From Bacteroidales bacterium (lineage in GTDB: Bacteria > Bacteroidota > Bacteroidia > Bacteroidales > UBA6680), in the NCBI GenBank assembly GCA_016926405.1, contig JAFGOQ010000062.1, forward strand, positions 1 through 51,337: DNA of 51,337 bases, written 5' to 3'. The notes under the pieces are model-generated. The model made no database searches. It saw nothing but the letters and a program-made list of their open reading frames with translations, and was not told the DNA's origin. Each line of letters starts with the position of its first letter. Position 1 is the first letter of the stretch. The position numbers were made by a program, and so were the translations under genes. Positions 1,582 through 42,622 of the stretch are shown here, in pieces.

Positions 1582-3792
1582 ATGAAACTAAAGACAAATA
1601 AGATAAGTGGTAAATCTCTATTAAAAATAAGTATACTATTTGGGTTTATTCTGTTGATATTTTTAAGTGCGGCATTTTTTAGAAATCAGATGGCACAAAA
1701 AGATTTGATGGTTTATTCTGATAGTTTTGCCGATTTTGTTGTTAAAGAGTTAGAGAAGGAATTTCTGTGTGTACAATCAAATATTGATTCACTGGCTCAG
1801 ATAATTATAGAAAATGTAGAGGAAGAAAATATTGACGAAATATTAAAAGAGCAAGAGAATGCTCTAAAGAGATGCATTCATTTAGATGGTTTGGCAATAG
1901 CTTTTAAAAAAAATTACTTAATAAAATACCCAGGTTTATATTCACCCTATTTACGTAGGGAAGAAGGTAAGTATGTTATGTTGCAAATTTCTGATATTTA
2001 CGATTATACCTCTGATAAAGCAGGCGTAGACTGGTATCAGCGCCCAGTGAAACAAAGAAAATCTGAGTGGCTTGGACCTATTTATGGTAAAGCTGGTGGT
2101 AGAAAATTATTTATGTATAGTGTTCCTTTGCAGATTAATGGGGAAATAATTGGAGTTATTGCTGCTTGCTATAACCTAATGGAAATTTATGATATACTTC
2201 AAAACACAGGTGCTGGTCGTATAGGCTTCCCTTATATAGTAAATAAAGAGGGAGAGTTTATTGCACATCCGTATAATCAAAATTTGAACTTAAAAGAGGT
2301 AGCAATTGAATCGAATGACAATGTTTTAATAGAATTATCAAATGATATTTATAGTAATACTTTTAATGACGATAGATATTATCATCAAAATACTGTAACT
2401 AAACAATATTGTTGGGAGTTAATTAAGAACATTGATACTTCATCACTTTATATGGGTATTTCTGTTAACGATAACCAGATTTACGGAAATCCAATTTATA
2501 GAAATCAGAAGCGTAAAGACATCTTTGTTTATTCTCTAGTTATTTATGTATTATTATTATGTCTACTCTATTTAATAATTTTTCAAGCAGAACTTTTTAG
2601 AAACAAACTGTCGGTTTTTGTCTCATTTTTCTCACTTATTTCTATTTTGGAAATTATGGTAATCACTACTTTTAGTGTTTACTATCCTGTAATAAATATC
2701 AGTGATGAAGAAACACAAAATATTGAATTCAAGAAGATAAAGATTATTGATAAATACAAAGAGCAATCAAAAGATAGTATCTCGTCTATTGTAAATCGCT
2801 GGAATTTCTCAATGATACTTGATAAGCATGGTCTTGTTGACTACTTAACAAGTTATAAAGAAGATATTACAGGTAAGACAAAAGAAATAGTTAAAGAAGT
2901 GCCAACTGGTGTATACCTTCAAACAATAAAGTTCAAAGATTCGCATAGCACTGATATAACAGGTTATGTTTGGCAAAATTATCCTTTGGATTGGACAGAT
3001 GGCAGAGGTATTATTTTTCCTGATGCAGAGAAAAGCATCATTGTATTGGATGATTCCACAACAATCTTTAATGAAAATGGAGATGTTGTTAATCTGTTTC
3101 GTTGGCGTTTTGAGGTGAGCATTCGCGAACCATTTAATTACATCCATTATCCATTAGATAGGAATGATTTGTGGCTTAGATTATGGCATAAGAACTTTGA
3201 CAAGGATATAATACTTGTGCCAGATTTTTCTTCTTATAGCTTAATTAATCCTGCTTTTACACCAGGGCTCGATGCTGAGATTGATTTACCAGGTTGGATT
3301 ATTGAAGGAAGCTTCTTTTCTTTTAAAGAGAAAGAATATAATTCAAGTTTTGGGAAAGAAATTTACGATATCAAGCATTTTTTTCCCGAACTACATTTCA
3401 ATATTATGCTTCATCGAGATTTTAGAGATCCCTTGATTTGTAAGGTGATTCCATTATTGGTGCTGCTATTTATGTTATATTCAATTCTTTTTATTGGGGG
3501 ACACACTGATGGATTAAATGTAGTTATTGGTTGTTCAGGTCTATTCTTTGTTGCTATTTTTGAGCATATACACCTTCGTCAGAGTTTAAATGCTTCAGGA
3601 ATTATCTTTTTGGAATATTTATATTTTATTACTTATCTCTTATTGCTTTTGGTTACTTACTGTGCTATGCGTAATGACATAATTATTAAAGTAGGTTCCA
3701 GGGATGTAAGCATAATTAATATTGCAAAATTATGTTTTTGGCCACTATTCTTTTTTCTCATCCTAATTGTATCTTGTTATACATTCTATTAG
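1582..3792 (+). CDS. Cache-domain sensor fused to a prokaryotic pentameric ligand-gated ion channel (pLGIC / Cys-loop family) module
   Basis: 736 aa. Layout: N-terminal TM (aa 14-33); Cache-like block (aa ~100-300, e.g. DWYQRP...LFMYSVPLQINGEIIGVIAACYNL...GFPYIVNKEGEFIAHPY); two TM helices (aa ~314-334 and 343-367). Then a pLGIC-like extracellular domain: VYLQTIKFKDSHSTDITGYVWQNYPLDW, IIFPDAE, and YPLDRNDLWLRLW at the position of the FPFDxQ Cys-loop motif. Then pre-M1 HRDFRDP and four C-terminal helices (M1 aa ~617-639, M2 ~644-664, M3 ~673-695, M4 ~713-735) with a very short M3-M4 loop. Confidence 0.6.
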   Translation: MKLKTNKISGKSLLKISILFGFILLIFLSAAFFRNQMAQKDLMVYSDSFADFVVKELEKEFLCVQSNIDSLAQIIIENVEEENIDEILKEQENALKRCIHLDGLAIAFKKNYLIKYPGLYSPYLRREEGKYVMLQISDIYDYTSDKAGVDWYQRPVKQRKSEWLGPIYGKAGGRKLFMYSVPLQINGEIIGVIAACYNLMEIYDILQNTGAGRIGFPYIVNKEGEFIAHPYNQNLNLKEVAIESNDNVLIELSNDIYSNTFNDDRYYHQNTVTKQYCWELIKNIDTSSLYMGISVNDNQIYGNPIYRNQKRKDIFVYSLVIYVLLLCLLYLIIFQAELFRNKLSVFVSFFSLISILEIMVITTFSVYYPVINISDEETQNIEFKKIKIIDKYKEQSKDSISSIVNRWNFSMILDKHGLVDYLTSYKEDITGKTKEIVKEVPTGVYLQTIKFKDSHSTDITGYVWQNYPLDWTDGRGIIFPDAEKSIIVLDDSTTIFNENGDVVNLFRWRFEVSIREPFNYIHYPLDRNDLWLRLWHKNFDKDIILVPDFSSYSLINPAFTPGLDAEIDLPGWIIEGSFFSFKEKEYNSSFGKEIYDIKHFFPELHFNIMLHRDFRDPLICKVIPLLVLLFMLYSILFIGGHTDGLNVVIGCSGLFFVAIFEHIHLRQSLNASGIIFLEYLYFITYLLLLLVTYCAMRNDIIIKVGSRDVSIINIAKLCFWPLFFFLILIVSCYTFY

Positions 3793-4035: not shown

Positions 4036-4671
4036 ATGCTTCGTGAAATTTTTAATGTGAAAAAAATTAAACATTGTTTTAATAAGGTGGTTAAACACTC
4101 TACTAATAACCAACTGTGTTATCTGAAAGAATTATTTGCTTATGCCCAAAATGCTGATCGTATTAGTTTTAATTTATTTGCAGCTTCTAGAGGGAACATC
4201 CCTGTTGGGGCGGTTGAGACAGGATACGAGGTTGATGGTACTGTTTTATACGCTGCAATAGCTAATTATAAAGATGAAATTTATCTTGGTAAAGTGAGTG
4301 CTGCAACTAAAGGCTTAAGTATTGGTTGGGGTGGGAAAGAATTGATTATTAGAGATTATTTTGTTTTAGCAGCTAAAGGAGAATGGGAAGAAGCTTATGG
4401 TGGTAATGTGCCTGTTGGAGCATTAAAAGTAACGGAACAATCTAATGGTTCGATTATTTATTTGGCTCGTGCCCATTATAAAGGCGGGTTATATCCCGCA
4501 AATATAATACGTGGTTCTTCTGGTGCTACTATTTCGTATTTAGGAAAAGAGGTTTGTTTATATGCTTATGAAGTATTTATAAATACAGACTCGTTTCTGA
4601 TAAAAAGACGCTCTAATAAATCTATTAAGAATGAAATATATGGAGTTGTTTCACCAACAATGCAACTCTAA
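4036..4671 (+). CDS. DM9 (DUF3421) repeat protein, two tandem DM9 repeats
   Basis: 211 aa. Repeat 1: GNIPVGAVETGYEVDGTVLYAAIANYKDEIYLGKVSAATKGLSIGWGGKELIIRDYFVL. Repeat 2: GNVPVGALKVTEQSNGSIIYLARAHYKGGLYPANIIRGSSGATISYLGKEVCLYAYEVF. Both fit the DM9 pattern (P.gAv.....g..lY.aRa.....pgk.......i...GkE.....yeVl). No signal peptide. The N-terminal ~50 aa are unassigned. Confidence 0.6.
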   Translation: MLREIFNVKKIKHCFNKVVKHSTNNQLCYLKELFAYAQNADRISFNLFAASRGNIPVGAVETGYEVDGTVLYAAIANYKDEIYLGKVSAATKGLSIGWGGKELIIRDYFVLAAKGEWEEAYGGNVPVGALKVTEQSNGSIIYLARAHYKGGLYPANIIRGSSGATISYLGKEVCLYAYEVFINTDSFLIKRRSNKSIKNEIYGVVSPTMQL

Positions 4672-4804: not shown

Positions 4805-5792
4805 GGTCTAAGATTACCAATCGTAATTGAAAATTTAAGTTCTTTTAAACATTATTTCGTTAGTGTCCGAAATTTACTATCAAAGGGCATTAATACCCAC
4901 TAATTTGGTTAATAAGTTAATACAGTTAGTATAAAATATCGATAATTATGATTAGAGCAGGTCCAAATGGTAAAAGTAAATGGTGATTGATCAATACCCC
5001 TCTTAGGTTTTAAAAGGTGCTTATTAATAACTAAATATAGAAAGTATCGACTGCGTGAACTAGTTGGTATGTTTTGAAAATTCAAGTAGCCCGTAGTAAT
5101 TAATAAAAGAATATAATAGGAATGAAAAATATACTAAGTATGCATTGTAATATGATAACTATTGACTCTTGTAATTAAATAATATGTATTTGATTTGGCA
5201 AGTTAGCATTATTTGTAAATACTGTATTTGTAACAGGTAATAACTGTTTTTTACATATATAGGTTAACTTTTATTAATAATATATTGCTTAAAAAAAGCT
5301 TTATGTTACTGCTGAGTTAAAGAGTGAAAAATATTGCAAATTGTTTGTGCTGTAATCTATTATGAGCCTTTTAGTTGGTGCAAATGCATTTTTTTTAGCG
5401 ATAGTACAATCAAGATTTTTACGATTTCTTATGTAAGTATATATTTCTTCCTATTTTTCTTTTAACTTCTCATGACGTTTTACTAGGATATTATTATCTC
5501 TGTCTCTCACCTTGTTTGCCTTATATACTCACATTATTGGTATGTTGCTTTGTTTTTTAGCATTATTTACGATGTTTAAAGCTTGATAACCATAGTAGTA
5601 TTTGAATAGTGTTTTATCTATAAATCATTTTTATGTAGTGTAAATAATAGCAGTGAGGCTAGGTCTTTATTTGTCTTCTCTTGTCTTCAATTAGTCCGAG
5701 TAATTGTGATAGTACTAGCAGTATGTTACAATTTTCTTATAGGCTTTTTTATGTGCCTTTCCCTCTATATGTCACCCGAATCTATTAATCCA

Positions 5793-6691
5793 ATGAAAAA
5801 ACTAAACATGCCAAATTTATATAGCGATTATATTGGGGCTATAGTATCTGAATCAATACAGCCCAAAAAAGACTTAGTTCCATTTATTAAAAAGTATCTT
5901 TTTTTTCAAAATAATAATGTTACAAACAAAGTGCAGTTAAAGCTGATTTCTAATGCGCAGTTAGAGATGCATATATGTTACGATACAAGTTGTTTTGTAA
6001 TTAATGAAGGCAAAAAAGAGTTTAAATATGATGCTTTTATCTCTGGAATCTTCGATTTACAGAAACCATTATATTATAAACCAATGGCTAATAGTGGCTC
6101 TTTTAAATGTGTTACAATAGCTTTTACGTTTAGTGGTGTTTATCAACTTCTTGGTTTAGATTTAAACTCATTAACTAACACCATGGTTGATGTTCAAACA
6201 ATTTTTGGTAGACATGCAACTGAATTGCTAAATAAAATGGAAGAAACCTCTTCTATAGACCAAAAAGTTGAATTGTTAAATGGGTTTTTTATGGACAGAT
6301 TGATTGAACAAAAAAAAAAGCTCCTCCTAAATATTTATTGCAGCTATATGATTCAATTATTAGAGATAAAGGATGTTGCTCGATTAATGGCTTAGCTTCA
6401 CAATTTAAAATTAATCCAAGAACTATTCATAGAATTTTTATAAACCATATTGGGATCTCTCCAAAAGCGTATTTAAAAATTATCAGATTTAATAATGCTT
6501 GTAAACTTATGGGTGATTATCCCGATATTGATTGGTTTGATATTATTGGTGATTGTGGATATTACGATCAGATGCACTTTATCCACGAGTTTAAGAAAAT
6601 AATTAATTATAATCCTCTACAACTTTTAAAAAAGAGTGAAGGTAATTTTTATTTCGAAAGACCTTTATTAATAATGAATTTCGAGGAGTAG
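5793..6691 (+). pseudogene. AraC/XylS-family transcriptional regulator interrupted by a frameshift in an A9 homopolymer
   Basis: ORF 5706..6395 carries the N-terminal sensor-like domain; the likely true start is ATG 5793 (MKKLNMPNLY). ORF 6338..6691, in another frame, carries the HTH_AraC part (INGLASQFKINPRTIHRIFINHIGISPKAYLKIIRFNNA...YYDQMHFIHEFKK). The second frame is open back to a TGA at 6302-6304. A 1-nt length change in the A-run 6311-6319 therefore joins ...DRLIEQKKK to APPKYLLQLYDSIIRDKG... Confidence 0.7.
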
Positions 6692-6901: not shown

Positions 6902-7288
6902 ATGAATAAAGCAAAAGAGATTACTCTACAGCTATCAAAAATTATTGTCGAAATAGCAATAATAATGATTGTTTGGGAAGTGGGTATGCTAATATCTAAA
7001 TACACACATTTGCCAATTCCTGGCAGTGTTGTAGGTATGGTTTTAATGTTTGCACTTCTTTATTTTAAGATAATAAAGCTGAGCCATATTACAGGGGTGT
7101 CTAATTTTGTGTTAAAGCACCTTGCTTTTTTCTTTATCCCTGCATCTGTTGGAATAATGGCATCGTTACATTATTTAGAGGGTTCTTATTTGAAAATTTT
7201 TTCCTTAATCTTTATCTCCAGTTTTATGGTTACTGCCATTACGGGGTATACAGTTCAGAAATATGTAAACAAAAAAGATAAGGAATGA
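6902..7288 (+). CDS. lrgA: CidA/LrgA family holin-like membrane protein
   Basis: 128 aa with four hydrophobic helices and the LPIPGSVVGMVLMFALL motif. Its stop overlaps the start of the LrgB-like gene (ATGA at 7285-7288). Confidence 0.8.
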   Translation: MNKAKEITLQLSKIIVEIAIIMIVWEVGMLISKYTHLPIPGSVVGMVLMFALLYFKIIKLSHITGVSNFVLKHLAFFFIPASVGIMASLHYLEGSYLKIFSLIFISSFMVTAITGYTVQKYVNKKDKE

Positions 7289-7965
7289 TAGGATATGTTT
7301 TTTTCTCTATTGCGCTATCTATTTGTGCGTGGATACTTGCATTATGGTTAAACAGAAAGTTTAAACACGAGGTTTTTAACCCTCTTGTTATTGCTACAAT
7401 TGTTATTATAGCAGTAATATATTCTCTTAAAATTGATTATAAAGATTATAAAGTGGGAGGCGATTTTATAGCTTTCTTCTTAGGACCATCAACAGTTGTG
7501 CTTGCTGTGCCTCTTTATAAGCAAGTAGGGTTAGTAAAGAAGTATTTTAAAGCTATAATAATAGGAATAGTTGCGGGTTCGTTAACAGCTATTTTAACAG
7601 TTATTGCTCTTTCAAAAATTATGTTTCTAAGCGAAACTCTTGAGATGTCAATAATTCCACGTTCTATAACCACACCTATAGGCATCGAGCTGTCAAAAAG
7701 TTTAAATGGTATACCATCAATAACAGTTGTGGCAATTATACTTTCTGGAATTATTGGAATGCTCTGTTGCGACGTTATTTTTAAATTGTTTGGGATTAAT
7801 AATCCAGTTGCTAAAGGTGTAGCAATAGGTACATCATCGCATGCTTTAGGCACTACAAAGGCATTAAAAAAAGGCGAGATTGAAGGGTCTATGAGTGGTC
7901 TCTCTATTGCCATTGCTGGTATTGTTACTTCAATTATTGTTGCTGTGGCTAGTTTTTTTATTTAA
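7285..7965 (+). CDS. lrgB: LrgB/CidB family membrane protein
   Basis: 226 aa, polytopic. Contains PRSITTPIGIELSKSLNGIPSITVVAIILSGIIG...VAKGVAIGTSSHALGTTKA, typical of LrgB. Translationally coupled to the LrgA-like gene. Confidence 0.85.
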   Translation: MIGYVFFSIALSICAWILALWLNRKFKHEVFNPLVIATIVIIAVIYSLKIDYKDYKVGGDFIAFFLGPSTVVLAVPLYKQVGLVKKYFKAIIIGIVAGSLTAILTVIALSKIMFLSETLEMSIIPRSITTPIGIELSKSLNGIPSITVVAIILSGIIGMLCCDVIFKLFGINNPVAKGVAIGTSSHALGTTKALKKGEIEGSMSGLSIAIAGIVTSIIVAVASFFI

Positions 7966-8007
7966 TGCATTTAGTATTATTAAAATAAAAATAAAGTTTC
8001 TGAAAAA

Positions 8008-8039
8008 TTTTTTAGTTCTGTATTTGCAGAACTAAAAAA
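8008..8039. promoter_or_regulatory. 13-bp perfect inverted repeat between lrgB and the GbsR/MarR regulator gene (terminator and/or operator)
   Basis: TTTTTTAGTTCTG (8008-8020), loop TATTTG, CAGAACTAAAAAA (8027-8039). It lies 43 nt after the lrgB stop and 40 nt before the regulator ATG, immediately upstream of a TAnnTTTG box. Confidence 0.35.
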
Positions 8040-8045
8040 CATTTG

Positions 8046-8053
8046 TACATTTG
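8046..8053 (+). promoter_or_regulatory. candidate -7 promoter box (TAnnTTTG) for the efflux regulator/operon
   Basis: TACATTTG lies 25 nt upstream of the ATG at 8079. Motif match only. Confidence 0.35.
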
Positions 8054-8078
8054 CCATCACAATATTAAATAATACGCA

Positions 8079-8540
8079 ATGCTTAGTAACGAACAATTAC
8101 ATTTAATAGAGGAGATGGGTGTTTATCACGAACGTAGAGGTATGTCACCTATTCCAGGACGTATATTGGGACTATTTGTAGTCTCTGATAAAGATGCATA
8201 TACTTTCGATGAGATTAAGGAAATTCTTAAGATCAGCAAAAGTGCAACTAGTTCGGCATTAAATTTTTTGGTTAGTACCGATCGTATTGAGTATACTACT
8301 TTGCCTGGCGATAGAAAACGTTATTTTAAATGGTCGCCATTTAAGGCTTTAGAAAACATAGAGCGTGAGACAAACAATATGTTTTCAATAGCTGAAATGT
8401 TTAGAAGAGCATACGAGTTAAAGAATAATAAGCAGAGCGAATCTGCCAATAATTTACTTATGGTAATGGACTTTTTCAATTATATGATTATGGAGCTTCC
8501 TAATTTGTATAATAAGTGGAAGAGAAGCTACTATAAATAG
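8079..8540 (+). CDS. GbsR/MarR-family winged-helix transcriptional regulator
   Basis: 153 aa. HLIEEMGVYHERRGMSPIPGRILGLFVVSDKDAYTFDEIKEILKISKSATSSALNFLVSTDRIEYTTLPGDRKRYFKW is the pattern usually found upstream of Bacteroidota TolC-MFP-RND operons. Confidence 0.75.
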   Translation: MLSNEQLHLIEEMGVYHERRGMSPIPGRILGLFVVSDKDAYTFDEIKEILKISKSATSSALNFLVSTDRIEYTTLPGDRKRYFKWSPFKALENIERETNNMFSIAEMFRRAYELKNNKQSESANNLLMVMDFFNYMIMELPNLYNKWKRSYYK

Positions 8541-8727
8541 ATATATACTGCTTAAATAAATCAATTTATATACAATAAATAAATGCTAATAGGGCAAAAA
8601 GGCCTGTTAGGTCTGCTATAGTTATGTTTAATTGGTTCTTTAATTACAGAACAAAACAGTCTTGACAGAATTATTAGTATTAAGTGTACTGTGACGAAAT
8701 AATATAAATAGCTAAATACAATTTACG

Positions 8728-10080
8728 ATGACAAAAAAACGAGTGTTGATTATTTTATTATTGTTTTCATTGGGTGGTGTCGGTAACTATATGTGTGCTC
8801 AAGGGTTAACGCTGAGTAGCTGTATCGATTCGGCCTTGATAAATAATAATAAGCTGCAAAAAGCCAAATTGGATGTCGATATTTACAACTATTCCAAAAA
8901 AGAGGCTTTATCGGCAGGGTTGCCTCAGATTAGTGCAACAGGAAATCTGAAATACAATATTGATAATATGACTATGGTATTACCTGGTGAGATTATGGGT
9001 AAGCCTGGTGAGACTTTGGTGGTGCAGTCTGGAACAAAATATAATTCCGATGCCAATTTATCGGTGTCGCAATTGCTATATAGTGGTTCGTATTTTGTTG
9101 GGGTTAAGGCTGCTAAGGTTGCTTGCGAATTGTCTGAACAGTTGGTGCAAAAAACAGAAGAAGATGTTATTTACAATGTCTCGGTTACTTATTATAATCT
9201 GTTGCAACTTAATCAGCAGATGAAGGCTTTACAGTCTAACTTAACTATGATTAATAAGTTGTTAGAAATATCGAAACTTCAGTACGATAACGATATTATT
9301 AAGAAAGTAGAGCTCGATAGGATAACTGTAACAAAGACTAATCTGGAGACTAATGTCGATAATTTGAGTGCTGCAATTGTACAGCTTAACAATGTTCTTA
9401 AATATCACATGGGTATCTCTACAAAAGAGCCTTTTCAAATAAACTTTAACGACACTATTGATATTCCCGACAATTTGTTGGCATTAGATTTTAACTTAAA
9501 TCATAGCAACCGCTCCGATATTCAGATATTAAACACGCAGCAAAAAATATTAGCTCTTAAATTAAAGGGTGCTAAAACTGCTTATCAGCCTTCGTTATCG
9601 GCATACGGACAGTTTTCGTATCAGGCAATGCGTAACGAGTTTAATTTTTTCGACGGTAGCAAAGATTGGTATAAGATGAGTTTTGTTGGACTTAAACTTA
9701 ATGTGCCAATTTTTACAGGATTTAATACTCGTTCGAAGGTTCAAAAAGCGAAGATTGCTTTAAGACAGAGCGAGATTAATTTAAACGATGTAAATAACTG
9801 GGTTGATGTGGAGTTTCTGAATGCTAAGAACAAATTAGCTAATAGCTTAAAGTCGGTTAAGGCACAAGATAAGAACAGAAAACTTGCTATGGATGTCTAT
9901 TCGCAAACTCAACTGGCTTATCAGGAGGGTACAACATCTTTAATAAGTCTGTTAGATGCCGAAACAGCTTTACGTCAAGCAAAAACAGGTTATAATAACG
10001 AGGTGCTTAATTTTAAAATTGCTGAGCTCGATTTACTTAAGGCCAAAGGCGATCTTAAAAGTTTGTTAAATAATAAATAA
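8728..10080 (+). CDS. TolC-family outer membrane efflux protein
   Basis: 450 aa with a signal peptide and two OEP-type repeats. The N-terminus (LTLSSCIDSALINNNKLQKAKLD) and C-terminus (LLDAETALRQAKTGYNNEVLNFKIAELDLLKAKG) are typical. Confidence 0.85.
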   Translation: MTKKRVLIILLLFSLGGVGNYMCAQGLTLSSCIDSALINNNKLQKAKLDVDIYNYSKKEALSAGLPQISATGNLKYNIDNMTMVLPGEIMGKPGETLVVQSGTKYNSDANLSVSQLLYSGSYFVGVKAAKVACELSEQLVQKTEEDVIYNVSVTYYNLLQLNQQMKALQSNLTMINKLLEISKLQYDNDIIKKVELDRITVTKTNLETNVDNLSAAIVQLNNVLKYHMGISTKEPFQINFNDTIDIPDNLLALDFNLNHSNRSDIQILNTQQKILALKLKGAKTAYQPSLSAYGQFSYQAMRNEFNFFDGSKDWYKMSFVGLKLNVPIFTGFNTRSKVQKAKIALRQSEINLNDVNNWVDVEFLNAKNKLANSLKSVKAQDKNRKLAMDVYSQTQLAYQEGTTSLISLLDAETALRQAKTGYNNEVLNFKIAELDLLKAKGDLKSLLNNK

Positions 10081-10227
10081 TTGCAAAGCAGATAAGCTGC
10101 TCTTTGTAATAGAGAAATAATAATTAATAGAGATAAAAAGAATACTGCAAAGAATCAAAGTAGAATTAAAAAGTAAAAAAACTTGTCGCTTGGTGCTTTG
10201 GAGGTAAACAATTTAAAATATAAACAG

Positions 10228-11283
10228 ATGAAGACTAAATTAATATCGTTTGCAATAGTAATTCTATTGATAGTTGGAATAGTGTGGAAACTAAAAGCTA
10301 ATAAGAGCGAGATTCAAGAAGAGGCAAAACTGTCGCAATTAACATCTACTTCAATTCCTGTTGTAGCAGCAAAATTATCAATTCACGATATAAATAACCA
10401 GATTATTGTTCCTGGTAAGCTTGAGCCTTTTCATCAGATAGATGTTGTGGCCGAGGCCGAAGGGAAAATTGTTAAGGTGTATAAGGAAAAAGGCGACAAA
10501 GTTGTTAAAGGCGAGCTGCTTGTTAAAATTGACGACGAAGTTTTAAGCGCCAACCTGCTTACTGCCGAAGCTAATTTTACTAAGGCCGAAAAAGATTTAG
10601 TACGATTTAACTCTCTTGCCAGCGGAAATGCTATTACCGAGCGTCAGCTTGAAGATGCTAAACTAATGTACAATAATGCAAAGGCAAAGCTAATTACTGC
10701 ACGCAAAAATTTAAATAATACAAATGTTGAAGCTCCAATTTCGGGAATTATTAACAACGACTTTGTTGATCAGGGACAGTTTTTGCGCCGCAATAGTGTG
10801 GTTTACGATTTAGTTGATATAAATAAATTTAAGCTTAATGTAAAAGTGTCGGAGTTTGATGTTTTGCAACTTAACAGCGGACAACAAATTGAGATTACTA
10901 CCGATGTATATCCAGGCCAAATATTTACTGGTACAATAAGTTCTATTGCTGTTAGTGCCGACCAATCGTTAAAGTACAATGTTGAGGTGGTAATGGAGAA
11001 CTCAGATACTAATCCGCTTCGTGCAGGTATGTACGCAAATGTATCTTTTAATAAAGGCGAAATACGCCAGGGATATCTGTTAGATCGAAACGCCATTGTT
11101 AACTCTGTTAAAAACCCTTCGGTGTTTGTTATCGAAAATGGTGTAGCAAAACTTAAAAGCATAAAAATTGGTATCACCATTGGCGATAAAGTTGAGGTAA
11201 TATCGGGTATCGATGCTAATACAACTGTTATTCTTTCGGGACAAATAAATCTTAAAGAGGGAACAAAGGTTACTGTTATTTAA
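10228..11283 (+). CDS. efflux RND transporter periplasmic adaptor subunit (MFP/HlyD family)
   Basis: The track ORF starts at TTG 10183. ATG 10228 (MKTKLISFAIVILL) gives a normal signal anchor. Lipoyl/hairpin/beta-barrel pattern is present (GKIVKVYKEKGDKVVKGELLVKIDD ... APISGIINN ... VSADQSLKYNVEV). Confidence 0.85.
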   Translation: MKTKLISFAIVILLIVGIVWKLKANKSEIQEEAKLSQLTSTSIPVVAAKLSIHDINNQIIVPGKLEPFHQIDVVAEAEGKIVKVYKEKGDKVVKGELLVKIDDEVLSANLLTAEANFTKAEKDLVRFNSLASGNAITERQLEDAKLMYNNAKAKLITARKNLNNTNVEAPISGIINNDFVDQGQFLRRNSVVYDLVDINKFKLNVKVSEFDVLQLNSGQQIEITTDVYPGQIFTGTISSIAVSADQSLKYNVEVVMENSDTNPLRAGMYANVSFNKGEIRQGYLLDRNAIVNSVKNPSVFVIENGVAKLKSIKIGITIGDKVEVISGIDANTTVILSGQINLKEGTKVTVI

Positions 11284-11299
11284 TATAAAATATATTCAG

Positions 11300-14200
11300 A
11301 TGAAAATAAGTGAGATATCGATAAAACGTAGCAGTATAGTAGTAGTGGTATTTACCCTGCTAGTGTCGTTGGGTATATTTAGTTACTCTAAATTAAACTA
11401 CGAGCTAATTCCCGATATGTCGATGGGAGTTATTACCGTAGCAACAGTATATCCGGGTGCTTCGCCTACCGAAGTGGAGTACTCTGTAACCAAAAAGGTT
11501 GAAGATGCTGTTTCTTCTATTGAGAATATTAAGAAAATCTCGTCGCAGTCGTTCGAAAATTATTCTGTTGTTGTTATCGAATTAATTTATGGTTCGGATG
11601 TTAAAACTGCATTAGACGATGCTCAGCGTAAGGTTGACCAGATAGTTAAAGATTTGCCCGACGATTGCGATCCTCCGGCTCTCTCGAAGTTTGCTATCTC
11701 TGATTTCCCTATTATTAACGCTGGTGTTAGTGCCGATATGCCCGCTACAGAGTTTTACGATTTAATAAAGAATCGTGTTAAACCTGAGCTTAGTCAAATA
11801 CCTGGTATGGCGCAGGTGAAAATGTTGGGTGGCGACGAGCGCGAAATATCTGTTAATATTGATGCCGAGAAGCTAGAGGTATATAATTTGTCTATTTCGC
11901 AAGTGGTTCAGATTATTAATTCGTCGAACCTCGATTTTCCTACTGGTAAAGTAAAGAGCGAACAAGGTCAAACATTAATACGCCTAGCGGGTAAGTTTAA
12001 AAATATCGACGAGTTAAATAATCTTGTAATTATTAACTCGCCAAACGGAGCCCCTGTTAAGCTTAAGGATATAGGCGAGGTGGTCGATTCGCACAAAGAG
12101 ACTCAGGTTTTGGTTCGTGCAAACTCTAAAAACTCTATTGGTTTACTAATGATTAAGCAAACCGATGCCAATGCGGTAGAGGTTAGTGCAAAGGCTAAAG
12201 AGGTTATATCAAAGCTCGAGAAGCAATTTGCCGATGTTAATTTAAGCTTTAACATAACTAAAGACACCTCCATTTTTACTATGGACGCTGCCGATGCTGT
12301 TATGCACGATCTTATTTTGGCTATTATTTTGGTAGCATTAGTTATGATGCTCTTTTTGCACAGTTTGCGTAACGCTGTAATTGTTATGATATCGATACCA
12401 GCTTCGCTTATTGCAACATTTACTATTATGTATTTGGCAGGCTTTAGTTTAAACTTACTTACCCTGCTTGGACTGTCGCTTGTGGTGGGTATACTGGTTG
12501 ACGATGCCATTGTGGTTATCGAAAATATTCACTCGCATTTAGAGAAAGGTAAAAATGCCATTAACGCCACTTACGACGCTATTAAGGAAATTGGTACTAC
12601 AGTAATATCTATTACTCTTGTAATTGTTGTTGTGTTTGTTCCTATTGCAATGACTTCAGGTGTGGTGTCTGATATGCTTCGTCAGTTTTCTATAACAGTG
12701 GCTTTTGCTACTCTTATGAGTCTTTTTGTATCGTTTACTCTTGTTGGTTTGTTGTCGTCGCGCTTCACTAAGCTAGAGCATTTAAACACAAAATCGTTTG
12801 TTGGTAAGTTTATTAAGGCTTTCGAGGGGTATATAAACAAATTTCAGAATTGGATTATAGGTATTCTTAAGTGGTCGCTAAACCATAAAATAGTAACTCT
12901 TTCGCTTACTGTTGCTCTTTTTGTTATATCGGTTGCTTTGTTACCTATGGGTTACATTGGTGCCGAGTTTGTAAATGGTGGCGACAACGGCGAGTTTACT
13001 CTAGAATTTGAATTGCCTAAAAATGCTACTGTTGAGCAAACTAATATGGCAACTCGTCAAGCCGAAGATTATTTATTGTCGATGCCCGAGGTGGTTAATG
13101 TTTTCTCTATTGTTGGTACCACTAGTAAGGCTAAAGAGGGACAAACAACAGCTTACAAATCGGAAATATCGGTTAAGTTAGTCGATGCAAAAAAACGCGA
13201 TCTTAGCTCCGAGATAATATCGCAACAGGTTAAGGTTGCTTTAGAGGAGAAAGTTTCGGGAATAAAAATACGAGCTGGTGCTGGTAAACTTGTTGGTGGT
13301 GGTATATCGCCGCAAATAAAGATGGTATTGCAAGGTAACGACTTTAATAAGCTTATGGAGCAGGCTAAGCTTGTTATTGCTGAGGTAGAGAAGGTGCCAG
13401 GTACAACACAGGTAAAAACATCGGTTGACGACGGAAACCCAGAGATTAGGGTAGAGGTGGATCGCGAAAAAATGGCTTCGCTAGGACTTAATCTTGGAAC
13501 TGTTGGATTAACACTTCAATCGGCTTTTAATGGTAACGACAATGCTAAGTTTCGTTTAGGATCGGAAGAGTACGATATAAAAATACGTTTCGATGCTTTC
13601 GATCGTCAAAATATTGATGATATCTCTAATGTGAATTTTATTAATAACAAAGGCAAGCTGATAAAACTTAAGCAGTTTGCTCGTATCTATCAGGCTACTG
13701 GACCTTCGCAGCTCGATCGTCGCGACCGTTTGGCTGCCGTTACTGTTGAGTGTTTTGTGGTAGGACGACCTACTGGTTCGGTGGGTAACGATATTAAAGA
13801 TCGTATTAATGCAGCCCCAAATCTTAAAGAGATAAACATATTGTACGAAGGTGATTTAGAGAATCAGGCCGACGCTTTTGGTACTCTTGGCTTTGCTCTT
13901 ATGGCATCAATATTCTTAGTATATCTTATTATGATTGCCTTATACAACTCGTATGTATATCCTTTTGTGGTGTTGTTTTCTATTCCGTTGGCAATAATTG
14001 GAGCACTGTTTGCTCTTGCCTTAACAAAGCAAACGCTTAATATATTCTCAATATTGGGTATAATAATGCTTATTGGTTTGGTGGCTAAAAATGCCATTCT
14101 GGTGGTTGACTTTACAAACCATCTTAAGGCCACTGGTATTAAAGTTAAACAGGCACTTATACAGGCTACCGCTTCGCGTTTTCGTCCTATACTTATGACC

Positions 14201-14494
14201 ACTTTAGCAATGGTGTTTGGTATGTTGCCTATTGCATTAGCTAGTGGTCCTGGTGCCGAGTGGAAAAACGGGTTGGCATGGGCTCTTATTGGTGGACTTA
14301 TTAGTAGTATGTTTTTAACGCTGGTTGTTGTTCCTGTTATATATTATATATTCGACAGAATATTGCATAAGCTTGGGCTAGGTAAGCAAAAACAAATAGT
14401 TATCGATGCTGTAGATAATGCTAATATAATTCCGCACACTACTCACGATATAATAAACGAGAGAGTTTTAGAAACAACCAATAATTTCAATTAA
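11300..14494 (+). CDS. RND efflux permease (AcrB/HAE1-type)
   Basis: 1064 aa with 12-TM RND architecture. Conserved blocks: LGLSLVVGILVDDAIVVIENI and GLVAKNAILVVDF. Confidence 0.9.
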   Translation: MKISEISIKRSSIVVVVFTLLVSLGIFSYSKLNYELIPDMSMGVITVATVYPGASPTEVEYSVTKKVEDAVSSIENIKKISSQSFENYSVVVIELIYGSDVKTALDDAQRKVDQIVKDLPDDCDPPALSKFAISDFPIINAGVSADMPATEFYDLIKNRVKPELSQIPGMAQVKMLGGDEREISVNIDAEKLEVYNLSISQVVQIINSSNLDFPTGKVKSEQGQTLIRLAGKFKNIDELNNLVIINSPNGAPVKLKDIGEVVDSHKETQVLVRANSKNSIGLLMIKQTDANAVEVSAKAKEVISKLEKQFADVNLSFNITKDTSIFTMDAADAVMHDLILAIILVALVMMLFLHSLRNAVIVMISIPASLIATFTIMYLAGFSLNLLTLLGLSLVVGILVDDAIVVIENIHSHLEKGKNAINATYDAIKEIGTTVISITLVIVVVFVPIAMTSGVVSDMLRQFSITVAFATLMSLFVSFTLVGLLSSRFTKLEHLNTKSFVGKFIKAFEGYINKFQNWIIGILKWSLNHKIVTLSLTVALFVISVALLPMGYIGAEFVNGGDNGEFTLEFELPKNATVEQTNMATRQAEDYLLSMPEVVNVFSIVGTTSKAKEGQTTAYKSEISVKLVDAKKRDLSSEIISQQVKVALEEKVSGIKIRAGAGKLVGGGISPQIKMVLQGNDFNKLMEQAKLVIAEVEKVPGTTQVKTSVDDGNPEIRVEVDREKMASLGLNLGTVGLTLQSAFNGNDNAKFRLGSEEYDIKIRFDAFDRQNIDDISNVNFINNKGKLIKLKQFARIYQATGPSQLDRRDRLAAVTVECFVVGRPTGSVGNDIKDRINAAPNLKEINILYEGDLENQADAFGTLGFALMASIFLVYLIMIALYNSYVYPFVVLFSIPLAIIGALFALALTKQTLNIFSILGIIMLIGLVAKNAILVVDFTNHLKATGIKVKQALIQATASRFRPILMTTLAMVFGMLPIALASGPGAEWKNGLAWALIGGLISSMFLTLVVVPVIYYIFDRILHKLGLGKQKQIVIDAVDNANIIPHTTHDIINERVLETTNNFN

Positions 14495-36455: not shown

Positions 36456-38480
36456 ATGATTGAGGAATTTATAGATAAGTTTAAATCCGAAGCGCTTGAG
36501 TATGTTTCTGTATTAGAAGCTAATATGTTGCAATTAGAGCAAGATCCTAATGATGCAGTTCTTGTTGAAGAGATTTTTAGAGTAATGCACAATCTCAAAG
36601 GTAATAGCTCAATGTTTGGTTTTTTTAATATCGATAATATTGCACATTCACTTGAGAGTCTTTTCGATAAAGTTAGAAATGGTAAAATAACTATTGATTC
36701 ATATTTTGTTACGTCAATATTGGAAATAGGAGATTTCCTGAGGGTTCTTATTAATAGTAACGACGAAATTTCTCAGGAGAGTAAGCTTACAAAAAATAGG
36801 TTTATCTCTAAGATAGAAGAGATAATGTCTTCTGAAAATCATGATAATATTTCTGTAGATTCAAAGATGTTGTCAGAAATAGATAAGCAAAATTCATTGT
36901 ATTATATTTTTGTTGATTTCAAGAGCTTAATTCTTAGAGACGGGATTAATCCAATGTCTTTTATCGATGATGTTTGTTGTTTTGGGAATTCATGGGTTCA
37001 TCCTGTTACCCAAAGATTTCCTTCATTAATTGAGTTAAATACTAAATTAAATAATCAGTCTTGGGAAATTATTTTATTCACAAATAGGAGAAAGAGTGAA
37101 ATAGCCAATGTTTTTTTATCAATTGAAGACATGGTTAATGTTGAGATTATAAAAATCTCAGATGTTGATTTATTAAATGATAAGTCGATTTTGAATAAAT
37201 TAAATAACGAATGTAATGTTTCTTATAAGTTGGGTATATCGAAAATTTGCGATTTGCTTTCTTTAGAAGTGCCTTATGTTAATAAACGTGCAACTAATGA
37301 AATAGTTGATAGTCAGATAAATTCAATAAGAGTGGCTTCTTCAAAACTTGATGAGCTGATAAATATTGTTAGCGAGCAGGTTATTGTACAAGAACGTTTA
37401 AAAATGTTATCAAAGAATATACTTGATGATGAGTTGTCTAGAATAACTGATGGTATTGATAAGTTGACTAATAAATTAAGAAATGTTGCATTCGCTTTAA
37501 TATTAATTCCCATTAAAAGTCTGTTCCCAAGATACCAGCGTATGATTAGGGACGTAGCAAAAGAATTAGGTAAAGATATTGTTTTTGATATTAGCGATAA
37601 TAACACCGAACTTGATAAATATGTAGTAGAATGTTTATCTGACCCACTAATGCACTTAATTAGAAATTCGTTAGATCATGCCATAGAAAAAGCCTCAGAG
37701 CGTCTGTTAAAAAACAAGTCTGAGAAGGGTAAAATAACTATAAAATCGTATTATTCAGGTGCGCATGTTATTATAGAGGTGTCAGATGATGGAAGGGGTA
37801 TTGATGTAAACATGGTTAAAGAGAAGGCTATTAGAGAGGGTTTACTAAACAAAGACGATAATATTCCAGATAATCAGGTAATTAATTTTATTTTCAGTCC
37901 AGGTTTTTCTACTGCCACTAATGTAAGTGATATCTCTGGAAGAGGAGTAGGGCTAGATGTTGTTTTTAAAAACATCTTAAACTTACGAGGTACAATATCT
38001 GTGGATACTTGTCAAGATAAAGGAACAACTTTTACGATTAAATTGCCTATTACTCTTTCAATATTTGACGGATTGATAATTAAGGCAAATGGGAATAAGT
38101 ATATAGTCCCATTGTTTTCTGTACAGAAAATATTACCAATAGAATACATCGATATCATTAATAATACAACCAAGTTTGTTGTAATTAATAAAAAGCGAAT
38201 CCCCTTTGTTAATCTAATTGAAGTTTTTGAAGGGGAAAGAAATGATGATATAAATATGGCAAACATGCTTATTGTAGAAATAGATGGAAGGGAGTTTGGT
38301 ATTATTATAGATGAGGTTCTAGGAGAGTACCAAACTGTTTTAAAGTCTATTAATAGTTTTGTAAATGTTCAAGATATTTTTTTAGGAGCCTCTATTTTAG
38401 GTGATGGAAAAACTGTTTTAGTATTAGATATTAATAGTCTTGTAAAAGCTCGATTAGGTTTAGAAATGTTTATTAATTAA
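36456..38480 (+). CDS. cheA: chemotaxis-type histidine kinase CheA (no C-terminal receiver)
   Basis: 674 aa. Hpt site FRVMHNLKGNSSMFGF; dimerisation helix IRVASSKLDELINIV; HATPase blocks LMHLIRNSLDHA, DDGRGID, GRGVGLDVV; C-terminal CheW-like domain. Confidence 0.9.
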   Translation: MIEEFIDKFKSEALEYVSVLEANMLQLEQDPNDAVLVEEIFRVMHNLKGNSSMFGFFNIDNIAHSLESLFDKVRNGKITIDSYFVTSILEIGDFLRVLINSNDEISQESKLTKNRFISKIEEIMSSENHDNISVDSKMLSEIDKQNSLYYIFVDFKSLILRDGINPMSFIDDVCCFGNSWVHPVTQRFPSLIELNTKLNNQSWEIILFTNRRKSEIANVFLSIEDMVNVEIIKISDVDLLNDKSILNKLNNECNVSYKLGISKICDLLSLEVPYVNKRATNEIVDSQINSIRVASSKLDELINIVSEQVIVQERLKMLSKNILDDELSRITDGIDKLTNKLRNVAFALILIPIKSLFPRYQRMIRDVAKELGKDIVFDISDNNTELDKYVVECLSDPLMHLIRNSLDHAIEKASERLLKNKSEKGKITIKSYYSGAHVIIEVSDDGRGIDVNMVKEKAIREGLLNKDDNIPDNQVINFIFSPGFSTATNVSDISGRGVGLDVVFKNILNLRGTISVDTCQDKGTTFTIKLPITLSIFDGLIIKANGNKYIVPLFSVQKILPIEYIDIINNTTKFVVINKKRIPFVNLIEVFEGERNDDINMANMLIVEIDGREFGIIIDEVLGEYQTVLKSINSFVNVQDIFLGASILGDGKTVLVLDINSLVKARLGLEMFIN

Positions 38481-38494
38481 AGATATTATATGAT

Positions 38495-38956
38495 ATGGAA
38501 AGTGTATTGAATTCATTTCTAATTATTTCTTTGGGGAAAGATATTTTTGCTGTTAACATTAGTAACATTCTTTGTATAGTAGAGCCTTCTGAAATAACAG
38601 AAATACCAGATTCTCCAAATTTCATTAGAGGTATTACAAATTTTAGTGGAGTGATTTTACCTGTTTTAGATCTAAAAACAAAGATGAATTTGGGATCAAC
38701 CGAAATAGTGAAGAATGTTTGCATTGTGGTTTTTGAAAAAATTGGGGATAATAAGGAAGTTAAAGTTGGAGTTCTTGTTGATAGTGTCATTTCTGTTATA
38801 GAAATTAAGGAGGATGAAATAGATAGAACTCCTATTAATGGCATTTATTCCCAATATATTAATGGTACAACTTTTTTTGATAATCAGATAATTATGATTG
38901 TTGATATTAATGCTGTTTTTAGCAAAAGTGAATTATCAGTAGATCAGCTTGTTTAA
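38495..38956 (+). CDS. cheW: chemotaxis coupling protein CheW
   Basis: 153 aa. FLIISLGKDIFAVNISNILCIVEPSEITEIPDSPNFIRGITNFSGVILPVLDLK. Confidence 0.85.
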   Translation: MESVLNSFLIISLGKDIFAVNISNILCIVEPSEITEIPDSPNFIRGITNFSGVILPVLDLKTKMNLGSTEIVKNVCIVVFEKIGDNKEVKVGVLVDSVISVIEIKEDEIDRTPINGIYSQYINGTTFFDNQIIMIVDINAVFSKSELSVDQLV

Positions 38957-39032
38957 ATAAGATATTTGCGTTATGAAGCTTAATTAATTCTTAATATCAT
39001 TAAAATAATACAGAAATAAAACCAGTGGACTT

Positions 39033-41054: not shown

Positions 41055-41181
41055 TGCAATTTTATTTTTAATAGAAGTTTAAATATTGAATTTTTTATTA
41101 GTTGAATAATTGTAAAATATTTTTTTTAAGTGACTCTATAAGAGTAGATTTTTTCAGTAAAGAGATATAAAAGAAGATTAA

Positions 41182-42000
41182 ATGACTGTATTAAAATCAA
41201 TTTTTAATGATAAATTAACAAAGTCTGATTATAATTTTCTCAGAGAGATTATATACAATCATTCTGGAATTTTTTTAGCAGATAATAAATACGTTATGGT
41301 GTCGGCAAGGTTGGTAAAACGTTTGAAAAATCTGCAGATTGATACTTTTAAAAAGTATGTAGAATTATTTAGAACAAAAAAAGGAGCAGATCAGGAAATT
41401 CCATATTTAATAAATTTAATTACAACAAATAAGACCGATTTTTTTCGAGAGAGTACTCATATTGATTTGCTATGCAAATTTGTTAAGGAAATATATAAAT
41501 GCCAACAAATAAAAATATGGAGTGCCGCTTGTTCAACGGGTGAAGAACCATATTCTTTATCGATTTCGTTGTATGAAATTGGGGCTAACTATTCAATACT
41601 AGCTACTGATATTGATACTAATGTTTTGGAAATAGCTTCTAAAGGAATTTACGATGAGACAAAAATAAATAATTTGTCGGACGATATTAAAAAGAAATAT
41701 TTTTTAAAAAGTAAAGATTCTAGTTCTAATCTTATAAAAGTAGCTCCATTTTTAAATGATAAGGTAATATTTAAGTATCACAACCTTGTTTGTAAATTAG
41801 ATACGCAATATAAATTCGACATTATTTTTCTTCGTAATGCGTTAATTTATTTTGATCAAGAATCTCAAAATACTGTAATAAACAATGTTCTAGCAAATTT
41901 AAAAAAGGGTGGATTCATTTTTTTAGGCCATTCTGAGTCCATTGCATATAGATTTCCAAATTTACATTTTGTAGCAAACTCTGTTTATCAATATTTATAA
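41182..42000 (+). CDS. cheR: chemotaxis protein methyltransferase CheR
   Basis: 272 aa. TNKTDFFRE, IWSAACSTGEEPYSLS, FLRNALIYFD. Confidence 0.9.
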   Translation: MTVLKSIFNDKLTKSDYNFLREIIYNHSGIFLADNKYVMVSARLVKRLKNLQIDTFKKYVELFRTKKGADQEIPYLINLITTNKTDFFRESTHIDLLCKFVKEIYKCQQIKIWSAACSTGEEPYSLSISLYEIGANYSILATDIDTNVLEIASKGIYDETKINNLSDDIKKKYFLKSKDSSSNLIKVAPFLNDKVIFKYHNLVCKLDTQYKFDIIFLRNALIYFDQESQNTVINNVLANLKKGGFIFLGHSESIAYRFPNLHFVANSVYQYL

Positions 42001-42130
42001 CCCATTATTATGCAAAGAATGATTAATGAAGAACTTGTAAAACCACCAGAGCAGAGGTTTATAGAAAAAGATAAATCAATAATGTTATTAGCCTATTTTC
42101 TTATGATCTCATTTTAAAAGAACTAAAGTA

Positions 42131-42613: not shown

Positions 42614-42622
42614 TATTAAATA

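Follow-up and report, generated by a model that had tools for sequence, protein, structure and literature searches.

The prokaryotic pLGICs (pentameric ligand-gated ion channels) include GLIC, the proton-gated channel of Gloeobacter violaceus, and DeCLIC of Desulfofustis, which the literature gives as the only prokaryotic pLGIC with a large extra N-terminal domain for which the structure of that domain is available; the same literature treats the physiology and native ligands of prokaryotic pLGICs as not established. Fusions of 'ART-LGICs' with MCP-N and Cache domains were reported from Methanosarcina, Cytophaga and Microbulbifer by Tasneem, Iyer, Jakobsson and Aravind (2004, PMC549065); they include Chut2789 of Cytophaga hutchinsonii (709 aa, aligned from residue 375 in Additional file 2), Meth2754 of M. 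barkeri (698 aa), MA1624 of Methanosarcina acetivorans (696 aa) and Mdeg1480 of Microbulbifer degradans (966 aa, aligned from residue 633). Jaiteh et al. 2016 trimmed the N-terminal regions and placed the knowledge of such combinations 'only at the genome level'. In the literature beyond Tasneem et al. 2004, our searches turned up neither an article that connects pLGICs to Cache or dCache domains nor an experimental study of this clade. Here we analyzed an open reading frame (ORF) at 1582..3792 (+) of a 51,337-nucleotide contig from a Bacteroidales bacterium (JAFGOQ010000062.1, assembly GCA_016926405.1), the whole length of which is called the window; the ORF starts with ATG and encodes 736 aa.

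The initial annotation of this gene had described a Cache sensor joined through a two-helix membrane hairpin to a pLGIC module. The observation was confirmed and the interpretation is supported by our analysis. Its remark that prokaryotic pLGICs with additional sensor domains are known from comparative genomics was correct but too general, as this exact clade was aligned and described in 2004. Judged by sequence, the window protein is a new member of the 'MCP-N + Cache + ART-LGIC' clade recognised at that time and not a new kind of protein, and what is new and worth recording here is the layout with seven helices and the size of the clade.

Layout and fold of the subunit

Seven hydrophobic helices were found by Kyte-Doolittle hydropathy (aa ~13-31, 314-332, 343-365, 618-636, 645-663, 673-691 and 714-732), namely one anchor, a pair separating the two extracytoplasmic parts and a C-terminal set of four. 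The AlphaFold2 secondary structure agreed with the hydropathy, placing helices at 304-340 and 345-373 and M1, M2, M3 and M4 at 615-639, 644-669, 676-696 and 711-735, respectively. The order is TM1 (transmembrane helix 1) with its N-terminus inside, a periplasmic dCache_1 domain, TM2 running down, a short basic cytoplasmic turn, TM3 running up, a helical linker, a beta-sandwich extracellular domain and M1-M4, so that each subunit has seven TM helices and both sensor-type domains are periplasmic. The features are as follows.

1582..3792, + strand: whole gene, a dCache_1 sensor, a TM hairpin and a channel subunit of pLGIC fold (ORF list, ortholog L001)
1618..1680, + strand: TM1, N-in signal anchor, aa 13-33, with K-rich MKLKTNKISGKSLLK before it (hydropathy peak 2.47)
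1699..2496, + strand: periplasmic dCache_1 (double PDC) sensor domain, aa ~40-305 (Pfam and PDB match)
2521..2583, + strand: TM2, aa 314-334, periplasm to cytoplasm (hydropathy peak 2.81, AlphaFold2 helix 304-340)
2584..2607, + strand: short cytoplasmic turn QAELFRNK, aa 335-342 (median TM2-TM3 loop of the clade 12 aa)
2608..2682, + strand: TM3, aa 343-367, cytoplasm to periplasm (hydropathy, AlphaFold2 helix 345-373)
2683..2892, + strand: helical periplasmic linker, aa 368-437, with a subclade insertion and a pre-beta1 helix at 415-430 (AlphaFold2)
2893..3417, + strand: pLGIC-type extracellular beta-sandwich, aa 438-612 (ten strands with pLDDT >90, Foldseek)
3148..3159, + strand: Pro-loop tip Y523-P524-L525-D526 ([F/Y]PxD) between beta6 and beta7 (aligns to GLIC YPFD)
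3415..3417, + strand: pre-M1 arginine R612 (aligns to GLIC R192)
3424..3498, + strand: M1, aa 615-639, with kink proline P624 (AlphaFold2 helix)
3511..3588, + strand: M2, presumed pore-lining, aa 644-669, with D643 just before the helix and R666 at its outer end (AlphaFold2 helix)
3607..3669, + strand: M3, aa 676-696, starting F676-L-E678-Y where the clade motif is Y-L-E-Y (AlphaFold2 helix)
3670..3711, + strand: minimal M3-M4 connection, aa 697-710 (short beta-hairpin in both models)
3712..3786, + strand: M4, aa 711-735, with clade motif W720-P721 and a periplasmic C-terminus (AlphaFold2 helix)

The modelled structure supports the conclusion that the gene encodes a divergent pLGIC (Pro-loop receptor) subunit, a relative of the animal neurotransmitter-gated channels. 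The AlphaFold2 model of aa 370-736, built without templates on the alignment of relatives found with that segment, had a pLDDT of 88.9 and a pTM of 0.82 and consisted of ten strands followed by four long helices. Foldseek returned 701 PDB matches at E<=1e-3, of which the best 50 were all pLGIC subunits, including the GABA-A rho1, alpha, beta and gamma subunits and the glycine receptor; GLIC (6zgk_A) matched with E=9.5e-14 and over 329 columns had a GLIC-normalised TM-score of 0.77, and 4ila_E superposed on the model at an rmsd of 3.1 A. The family consensus (...VPTGV..QS.EF....NV..TGYVWQ...FDY..YPFDRQD.WLRLW...LVPDF...PELYFN..L.R.F.GPF...) gave a profile which, searched against PDB sequences, scored weakly and found the GLIC chimera 4x5t first (E=0.012) and GLIC at ~1, while the lower listed matches were mostly pentameric channels, namely GLIC and acetylcholine-receptor chains. 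The profile and GLIC were aligned in register both at the Pro-loop (FdYskYPlDrq in the family, LDFRRYPFDSQ in GLIC) and before M1 (LyFnlvleRdf and LDYQLRISRQY).

The sequence landmarks on which the channel had originally been recognised were all located: the beta-sandwich start VYLQTIKFKD...ITGYVWQNYPLDW at aa 444-471, IIFPDAE at aa 477-483, the Pro-loop segment YPLDRNDLWLRLW at aa 523-535 (nt 3148-3186) and HRDFRDP before M1 at aa 611-617. The C-terminal module with a minimal M3-M4 loop was likewise found, since the model superposes on GLIC and GABA-A subunits and the connection is only aa 697-710, where both models place strands at 701-704 and 707-710 (IIIK-VG-SRDVSII), a hairpin and not a plain loop. 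A large intracellular domain is absent from the window protein, as in other prokaryotic pLGICs. W720 and P721 of M4 are nearly invariant or invariant in the clade.

Five of the seven hallmark residues in Table 1 of Jaiteh et al. 2016, which lists the most conserved positions of the superfamily, are at their expected positions (Y523, P524, D526, R612 and P624). P524 is invariant and D526 nearly invariant in our alignments A1-A3, the last of which holds 63 sequences (the window protein and 62 long relatives) and underlies the counts below; the Pro-loop Pro is the sole residue conserved in 100% of the superfamily (Jaiteh et al. 2016). R612 is invariant in A1 and A2 and R in 60/63 sequences of A3, and the pre-M1 Arg, salt-bridge partner of the Pro-loop Asp, occurs in 94% of the superfamily (Jaiteh et al. 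2016). P624 is P in 60/63, and its spacing of 12 from R612 is equal to that of R192-P204 in GLIC. W572, nearly invariant in the clade, is paired with the Trp of GLIC TGWD (taken as W160) in a weak alignment (E ~0.1). In the superfamily, the beta9 core Trp is W in 71% and the M1 kink Pro is present in 77% (Jaiteh et al. 2016).

In M2, position 654 is L in 56 sequences and F in six, 651 is C in 47 and S in seven, 658 is V in 40, and R666 is found in all 63. By helix spacing, L654 is the probable 9' gate residue, with C651 then at 6' and V658 at 13'; L654 lies 30 residues after P624, which we take to be the P-to-9' distance of the nicotinic alpha subunit. The 9' position is Leu in 75% and Phe in 13% of the superfamily (Jaiteh et al. 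2016). D643 would lie at ~-2', the site of an acidic residue in GLIC, and by this analogy gives a weak hint at cation flux. A cation-type E-E-K filter in the M1-M2 linker was considered and withdrawn, because its acidic and basic columns lie 9-10 residues farther from M2 in most members than in the window protein.

The topology was examined from the flanking charges. The argument of the initial annotation that an even number of helices keeps both domains periplasmic is consistent with the K/R-rich N-terminus, the Arg-rich TM2-TM3 turn and the net-acidic flanks after TM3 across the family, and exactly two helices between the Cache and channel parts were found by both hydropathy and AlphaFold2. 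Four K/R and no D/E precede TM1, the sequence of which is weakly conserved within the clade, and positions 334, 337, 341 and 342 in the TM2-TM3 turn are mostly R/K among relatives. The mean net charge across the clade was +1.8 for the N-terminus, +1.0 for the hairpin turn, +0.9 for the M3-M4 loop and -0.95 after TM3, a sequence pattern that fits an inside N-terminus with the Cache and extracellular domains outside. The raw K+R count was rejected as positive-inside evidence, being uninformative (9.7 inside vs 9.8 outside); only the net charge and the Arg-rich turn help.

The linker contains AlphaFold2 helices at 376-392, 397-407 and 415-430, and about 35 of its residues are found only in the window protein and P0001 in the family alignment. 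It is also the part least conserved (58% identity) relative to L001, an ortholog in a Bacteroidales metagenome-assembled genome (MAG) that aligns gap-free over 729 aa at 72% identity. Between the two, synonymous sites are saturated (pS ~0.75) while pN is 0.10-0.22 in every segment including the hairpin, and the window gene is thus functional and under purifying selection.

The clade and its Cache domain

The search with aa 370-736 found 34 relatives, none with a Pfam domain, and the few source names were 'hypothetical protein'; the closest relatives in the protein databases were 55% identical to the channel part. The family profile, run by HMMER over 1.84 billion representative proteins, matched 2,217 of them at E<=1e-3 and 1,244 with E<=1e-30, which makes a clade of ~2,200 clusters at 50% identity. 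Relatives in one-genome-per-species contigs, found with a five-sequence alignment, were in Bacteroidales MAGs (best 81% over the channel part), many archaea (Methanosarcinaceae, ANME-related and other Methanosarcinales), and Desulfoluna, Chloroflexota, Dehalococcoidia, the cyanobacteria Geitlerinema and Baaleninema, Haliangium, Streptomyces and Kitasatospora. The window sequence itself was found in sediment, microbial-mat, freshwater and anchialine metagenomes.

The 2004 proteins Chut2789, MA1624, Meth2754 and Mdeg1480, as given in the alignment of PMC549065, have in common with the window protein or clade consensus the motifs IPTGV..TGYVWQ, FDYxxYPFD..W.R.W, LVPDF, PELYFN, CxxLFFVxIxHxxLR, YLEYFY and YWP. 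The corresponding blocks of Meth2754 in that alignment are RIPTGVFIQSIEFSTSNDITMTGYVWQNI, FDYSRYPFDEENIWIKFWNN, VLVPDFDS, ELYFNVAIKRDLKSPF, CASLFFVLIVSHASLR, YLEYFYLILY and LYWP.

About 100 long forms (640-800 aa) were among the collected relatives. In 69 of these examined for helices, 53 have three helices upstream of the channel domain, TM2 being the second of the three, and 51 have four downstream; the median length of the first loop is 287 aa and that of the second (hairpin) loop is 12 aa. Short Cache-less forms (~440-480 aa) have the same three upstream helices in 31 of 53, with a first loop of only ~18 aa. The 3+4 helix frame is thus modal in both forms, and the Cache domain sits in the first periplasmic loop or is absent from it. 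The short forms include P0003-P0029 and the Streptomyces and Kitasatospora loci L013, L020, L022-L024, L026 and L027. Some relatives are oversized, namely P0125 (1282 aa), P0076 (974 aa, three matched stretches), P0154 (1022 aa, two stretches) and P0143 (945 aa), which suggests extra N-terminal domains or partial duplications of the channel module.

The proposed check with dCache profiles was positive. Pfam dCache_1 (PF02743) matches aa 90-249 with E=5.3e-13 and 49.5 bits, above the curated cut-off of 45, and together with the TM1 anchor this bears out the signal-anchored N-terminal Cache domain; the domain is bracketed by two TM helices (TM1 13-31 and TM2 314-332). The MCP-like_PDC_1 profile also matches this half (E=6e-13), and dCache_1 is present in 57 of the 63 aligned sequences. 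The 'MCP-N + Cache' architecture is presumably an older name of what Pfam now models as dCache_1. The best PDB match was 9HVJ (E=7e-9), the dCache_1UR domain of a gut Clostridia chemoreceptor with uracil bound distally and acetate proximally, and the next were PctA, PctB and PctC at E 1e-3 to 5e-2. A search for homologs of aa 1-369 gave nothing at E<=1e-5 in 5.8 billion sequences.

Published pocket residues were mapped onto the window protein through HMMER alignments, using the specificity motifs of PctA (Y121, R126, W128, Y129, Y144 and D173) and of the uracil sensor A4 (R116, F129, T145, W160, Y176, N178, N180 and D205). The aromatic framework of the pocket is retained (Y142, W151 and Y152), and the known amino-acid, amine-type and uracil pocket motifs were not found in the window Cache domain: R126/D173 of the amino-acid sensor PctA correspond to V149/C196, and Y176/N178/N180/D205 of A4 to I167/G169/A171/C196. 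The pocket positions are variable among relatives, position 196 for example being D in 16, N in 15, S in seven and T in six.

The mean frequency of the top residue was 0.63 in M3, 0.59 in the extracellular domain, 0.58 in M4, 0.56 in M2 and 0.55 in M1, and 0.42 in TM3, 0.36 in the Cache domain, 0.35 in TM2 and 0.27 in TM1. The initial annotation had suggested a double sensor, with one site in the Cache domain and an orthosteric site in the channel; conservation does not support this, the extracellular domain being far more conserved across the clade than the Cache pocket. Read from the alignment, the protein resembles a single variable sensor joined to a conserved transducer more than a pair of independent ligand sites.

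Proposed gating and the alternatives

The best explanation of these results, and in our judgement a rather probable one, is a Cache-gated pLGIC subunit in a Bacteroidales-like bacterium of sediment and microbial-mat habitats, for which pentamer formation, conduction and gating by the Cache domain are predicted properties. A homopentamer would form around an M2-lined pore, with a hydrophobic gate probably at L654 (9'). A small molecule would bind the Cache domain and displace TM2, as in dCache chemoreceptors and kinases, and the TM2-TM3 hairpin together with the helical linker would relay this shift to the conserved interface of the extracellular and transmembrane parts (Y523-P524-x-D526, R612, R666 and E678), biasing the pore open. 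Ion flux, possibly of cations (D643 at ~-2'), would then alter the membrane potential or ion balance. A tentative and rather unlikely version of the same reading is that the three extra helices form an outer ring of 15 helices round the 20-helix core and that the Cache signal passes within the membrane, from TM2/TM3 to M4/M1, instead of or alongside the route through the extracellular domain. If so, allosteric gating would have a built-in route of the 'auxiliary subunit' type, undescribed for any pLGIC, and the clade would allow the native agonist of a prokaryotic pLGIC to be found by screening isolated Cache domains.

Observations on the Cache coupling, on the pore and on profile searches weigh against this explanation. 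With regard to coupling, Cache-less forms with the same 3+4 frame are common; because they exist, the channel module can work without the Cache domain and must also respond to something else. The TM3 of the clade has a motif on one face, L-W-xx-S-xxx-S-xxxxx-G-I-xxx-W, as would be expected for specific helix packing, and the window protein has S344, E357 and T362 where the motif has W, G and W. The motif has been lost in the window's subclade, which weakens a coupling route by TM3 packing for the window protein, and the coupling may differ in this subclade. In the full-length AlphaFold2 model (alignment A2), the Cache domain had a pLDDT <50 and the hairpin was moderate only, because the alignment used was shallow over the Cache part.

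In view of the Cache-less forms, a serious rival, which we regard as possible though on the improbable side, is that the channel is gated at its own extracellular domain, by an orthosteric ligand, protons or divalent ions, and that the Cache domain has only a modulatory effect on kinetics, assembly or localisation, like that of the N-terminal domain of DeCLIC. The Cache-less short forms keep the extracellular domain and the 3+4 frame, so that gating there is independent of a Cache domain; the loop-C-like clade motif Y586-N-[ST]-x-F590-G591 could be a conserved binding or coupling element; and the DeCLIC literature presents its N-terminal domain as a modulator of gating. However, the extracellular domain is near-uniform over ~2,200 clusters from archaea to actinobacteria, which speaks against diverse orthosteric ligands, while the variable Cache pocket is where specificity seems to evolve, and Cache domains are primary sensors in other receptors.

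With regard to the pore, M2 is strongly hydrophobic, with the bulky run L654-F655-F656 conserved in the clade, so that the pore may be tightly closed or may not conduct. No proline is present in the M2-M3 loop, the window loop being N670-A-S-G-I-I675, and P occurs near this site (column 672) in only 7 of 63 relatives; the proline is present in 88% of the superfamily (Jaiteh et al. 2016), frequent and not universal, and for that reason its absence was not treated as excluding membership. Instead, the outer end of M2 bears an invariant R666 in the clade and M3 starts with Y676/E678, position 676 being Y in 61/63 (F in the window protein), 678 being E in 59/63 and Y685 being invariant. The HMM and 2004 alignments put 9' three or six residues before L654, and between these two alignments and the helix boundaries the register of M2 varies by up to 3 residues, which leaves the assignments of gate and selectivity soft.

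A pLGIC-fold transducer or scaffold that does not conduct and signals to partners (e.g. the Che pathway in the window) by conformational change would agree with the hydrophobic run and the missing proline, with the lack of a cytoplasmic output domain and with the presence of cheA and an MCP gene on the same contig. We consider it very unlikely, since conducting pLGICs typically show the combination of 9' Leu, 6' Cys/Ser and 13' Val, the cytoplasmic loops of only ~5-20 residues offer little surface to a partner, and the che genes are ~33 kb off with no conserved neighbourhood. To our knowledge, all characterised members of the pLGIC fold are channels, which also counts against such a transducer.

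With regard to profiles, whole-protein scans matched no Pfam or NCBIfam model to aa 370-736. The check with neurotransmitter-gated channel profiles suggested at first failed: Neur_chan_LBD (PF02931) and Neur_chan_memb (PF02932) did not match the window protein at E<=10, and none of the 63 clade members matched them at E<=0.01. In the parts of PMC549065 concerned with sources, the Pfam neurotransmitter-channel alignments are cited for the metazoan members only; the miss is a limit of the profiles and not a defining property of pLGICs. The structural match to pLGICs was taken as decisive in their place, and the refuting outcome named in the initial annotation, a lack of both profile and structural matches, therefore did not arise. 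A spurious resemblance, in which AlphaFold2 forced the fold on an unrelated four-helix membrane protein with a beta-rich loop, could draw on these negatives and on the weak profile-to-PDB E-values (0.012 at best) and is close to refuted by the high-confidence template-free model, the superposition on full-length GLIC (TM-score 0.77), five hallmark residues at the right places and spacings with a sixth on a weaker alignment, and the independent, manually curated 2004 alignment that joined the clade to animal receptors in PMC549065.

The clade also offers a practical approach: a Cache domain can be produced on its own for screening with libraries of metabolites, as the 9HVJ study did for gut bacteria, and any ligand then tried on the full channel. 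Members of the clade are publicly named 'PDC sensor domain-containing', 'Cache domain-containing' or 'hypothetical' protein, and the channel half of ~2,200 clusters escapes Pfam and NCBIfam, an annotation gap that a dedicated profile would fix.

Gene neighbourhood and comparison with known systems

No conserved partner was found among ten genes flanking clade members in four related loci or among the neighbours of L001, and none across phyla, and a fixed operon partner was rejected; the L001 locus has an upstream gene of unknown function and a GNAT gene in common with the window. Directly downstream of the channel gene, at 4036-4671, is a 211-aa DM9-repeat protein (PF11901, E=1.8e-29); the L001 contig ends ~0.8 kb past its channel gene, before any counterpart could show. 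A sigma-70 promoter scan was not above shuffles, with a scan model unsuited to Bacteroidota, and Rfam and tRNA scans of the window found nothing.

A chemotaxis-type cluster occupies 36456-43699 of the window, with CheA (Hpt, H-kinase_dim, HATPase_c and CheW) at 36456-38480, an MCP at 39033-41054, and then ORFs of 272 and 358 aa. Passages of Tasneem et al. 2004 (PMC549065) propose that bacterial LGICs act in chemotaxis; the cluster lies ~33 kb from the channel gene and therefore only shows that the organism has such a pathway. At 5706-6691, an AraC-type regulator is split in two overlapping frames (DUF6597 5706-6395, HTH_18/HTH_AraC 6338-6691), which could be a frameshifted pseudogene or an assembly error. 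The region 6902-14494 holds an LrgA/LrgB pair (6902-7965), a weak MarR-like ORF, an OEP outer-membrane factor (8728-10080), an HlyD-type adaptor (10183-11283) and a 1064-aa ORF, the last three probably a tripartite efflux system, and the G+C across it climbs from ~0.29 to 0.36-0.39.

Around other clade members, the gene in Desulfoluna spongiiphila (L003, 4828-11738) overlaps by 4 bases a 953-aa fusion of a periplasmic-binding protein and an MscS-type channel, and the next gene is a transporter with a cyclic-nucleotide-binding domain (Na_sulph_symp/CitMHS), forming a cluster of sensor-fused channels and transporters. Glycoside hydrolase family 19 (GH19, peptidoglycan-related) adjoins a clade member in two unrelated genomes, as LysM+GH19 in L001 (1883-2743) and as Peptidase_C39_2 + PG_binding + GH19 in Baaleninema (L010, 7240-8967), with none in the window, and this adjacency may be coincidence. 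In a Methanosarcinaceae MAG (L006, 2368-4446), the upstream neighbour is a 692-aa eCIS_core protein related to contractile injection systems.

The 2004 clade proteins resemble the window protein in their N-terminal Cache-type sensor and, in three of the four aligned, in length (696-709 aa; Mdeg1480 is 966 aa) with the channel block starting from ~375. The passages of the 2004 text on domain order give signal peptide, additional domains, ligand-binding domain (LBD) and four TM helices, with no mention there of the two helices between Cache and LBD that the window protein has. Compared with that clade, the M1-M2 loop of the window's subclade is shorter by 9-10 residues and its TM3 has diverged; both traits are found in the window protein, L001 and P0001, and P0066 has the shorter loop alone.

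Like the window protein, DeCLIC is a prokaryotic pLGIC with a large extra periplasmic N-terminal domain, but its lobes are structurally homologous to calcium-binding domains whereas the window protein has a Cache domain, and no DeCLIC chain was among the best 50 Foldseek matches of the channel model. We take the N-terminal domain of DeCLIC to be joined directly to the extracellular domain, without intervening membrane helices. GLIC and the canonical prokaryotic pLGICs match the window protein in subunit fold (TM-score 0.77, rmsd 3-4.5 A), and GLIC has in common with it YPxD, pre-M1 Arg and M1 Pro with the same spacing, a short M3-M4 loop and no Cys-loop cysteines. The identity to GLIC is only 15-17% with no Pfam match, and unlike GLIC the window protein has three extra N-terminal helices, a Cache domain, and the R666/E678 pair in place of the M2-M3 proline. 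On the sensor side, the dCache_1 chemoreceptor sensors PctA, PctB, PctC and A4 (dCache_1UR, 9HVJ) likewise have a double-PDC domain between two TM helices, and share with the window protein the framework residues Y140-D141-Y142, W151-Y152, W163, P166, G215 and H229-P230. The output of such chemoreceptors is kinase control or an enzymatic module, whereas that of the window protein is predicted to be a channel.

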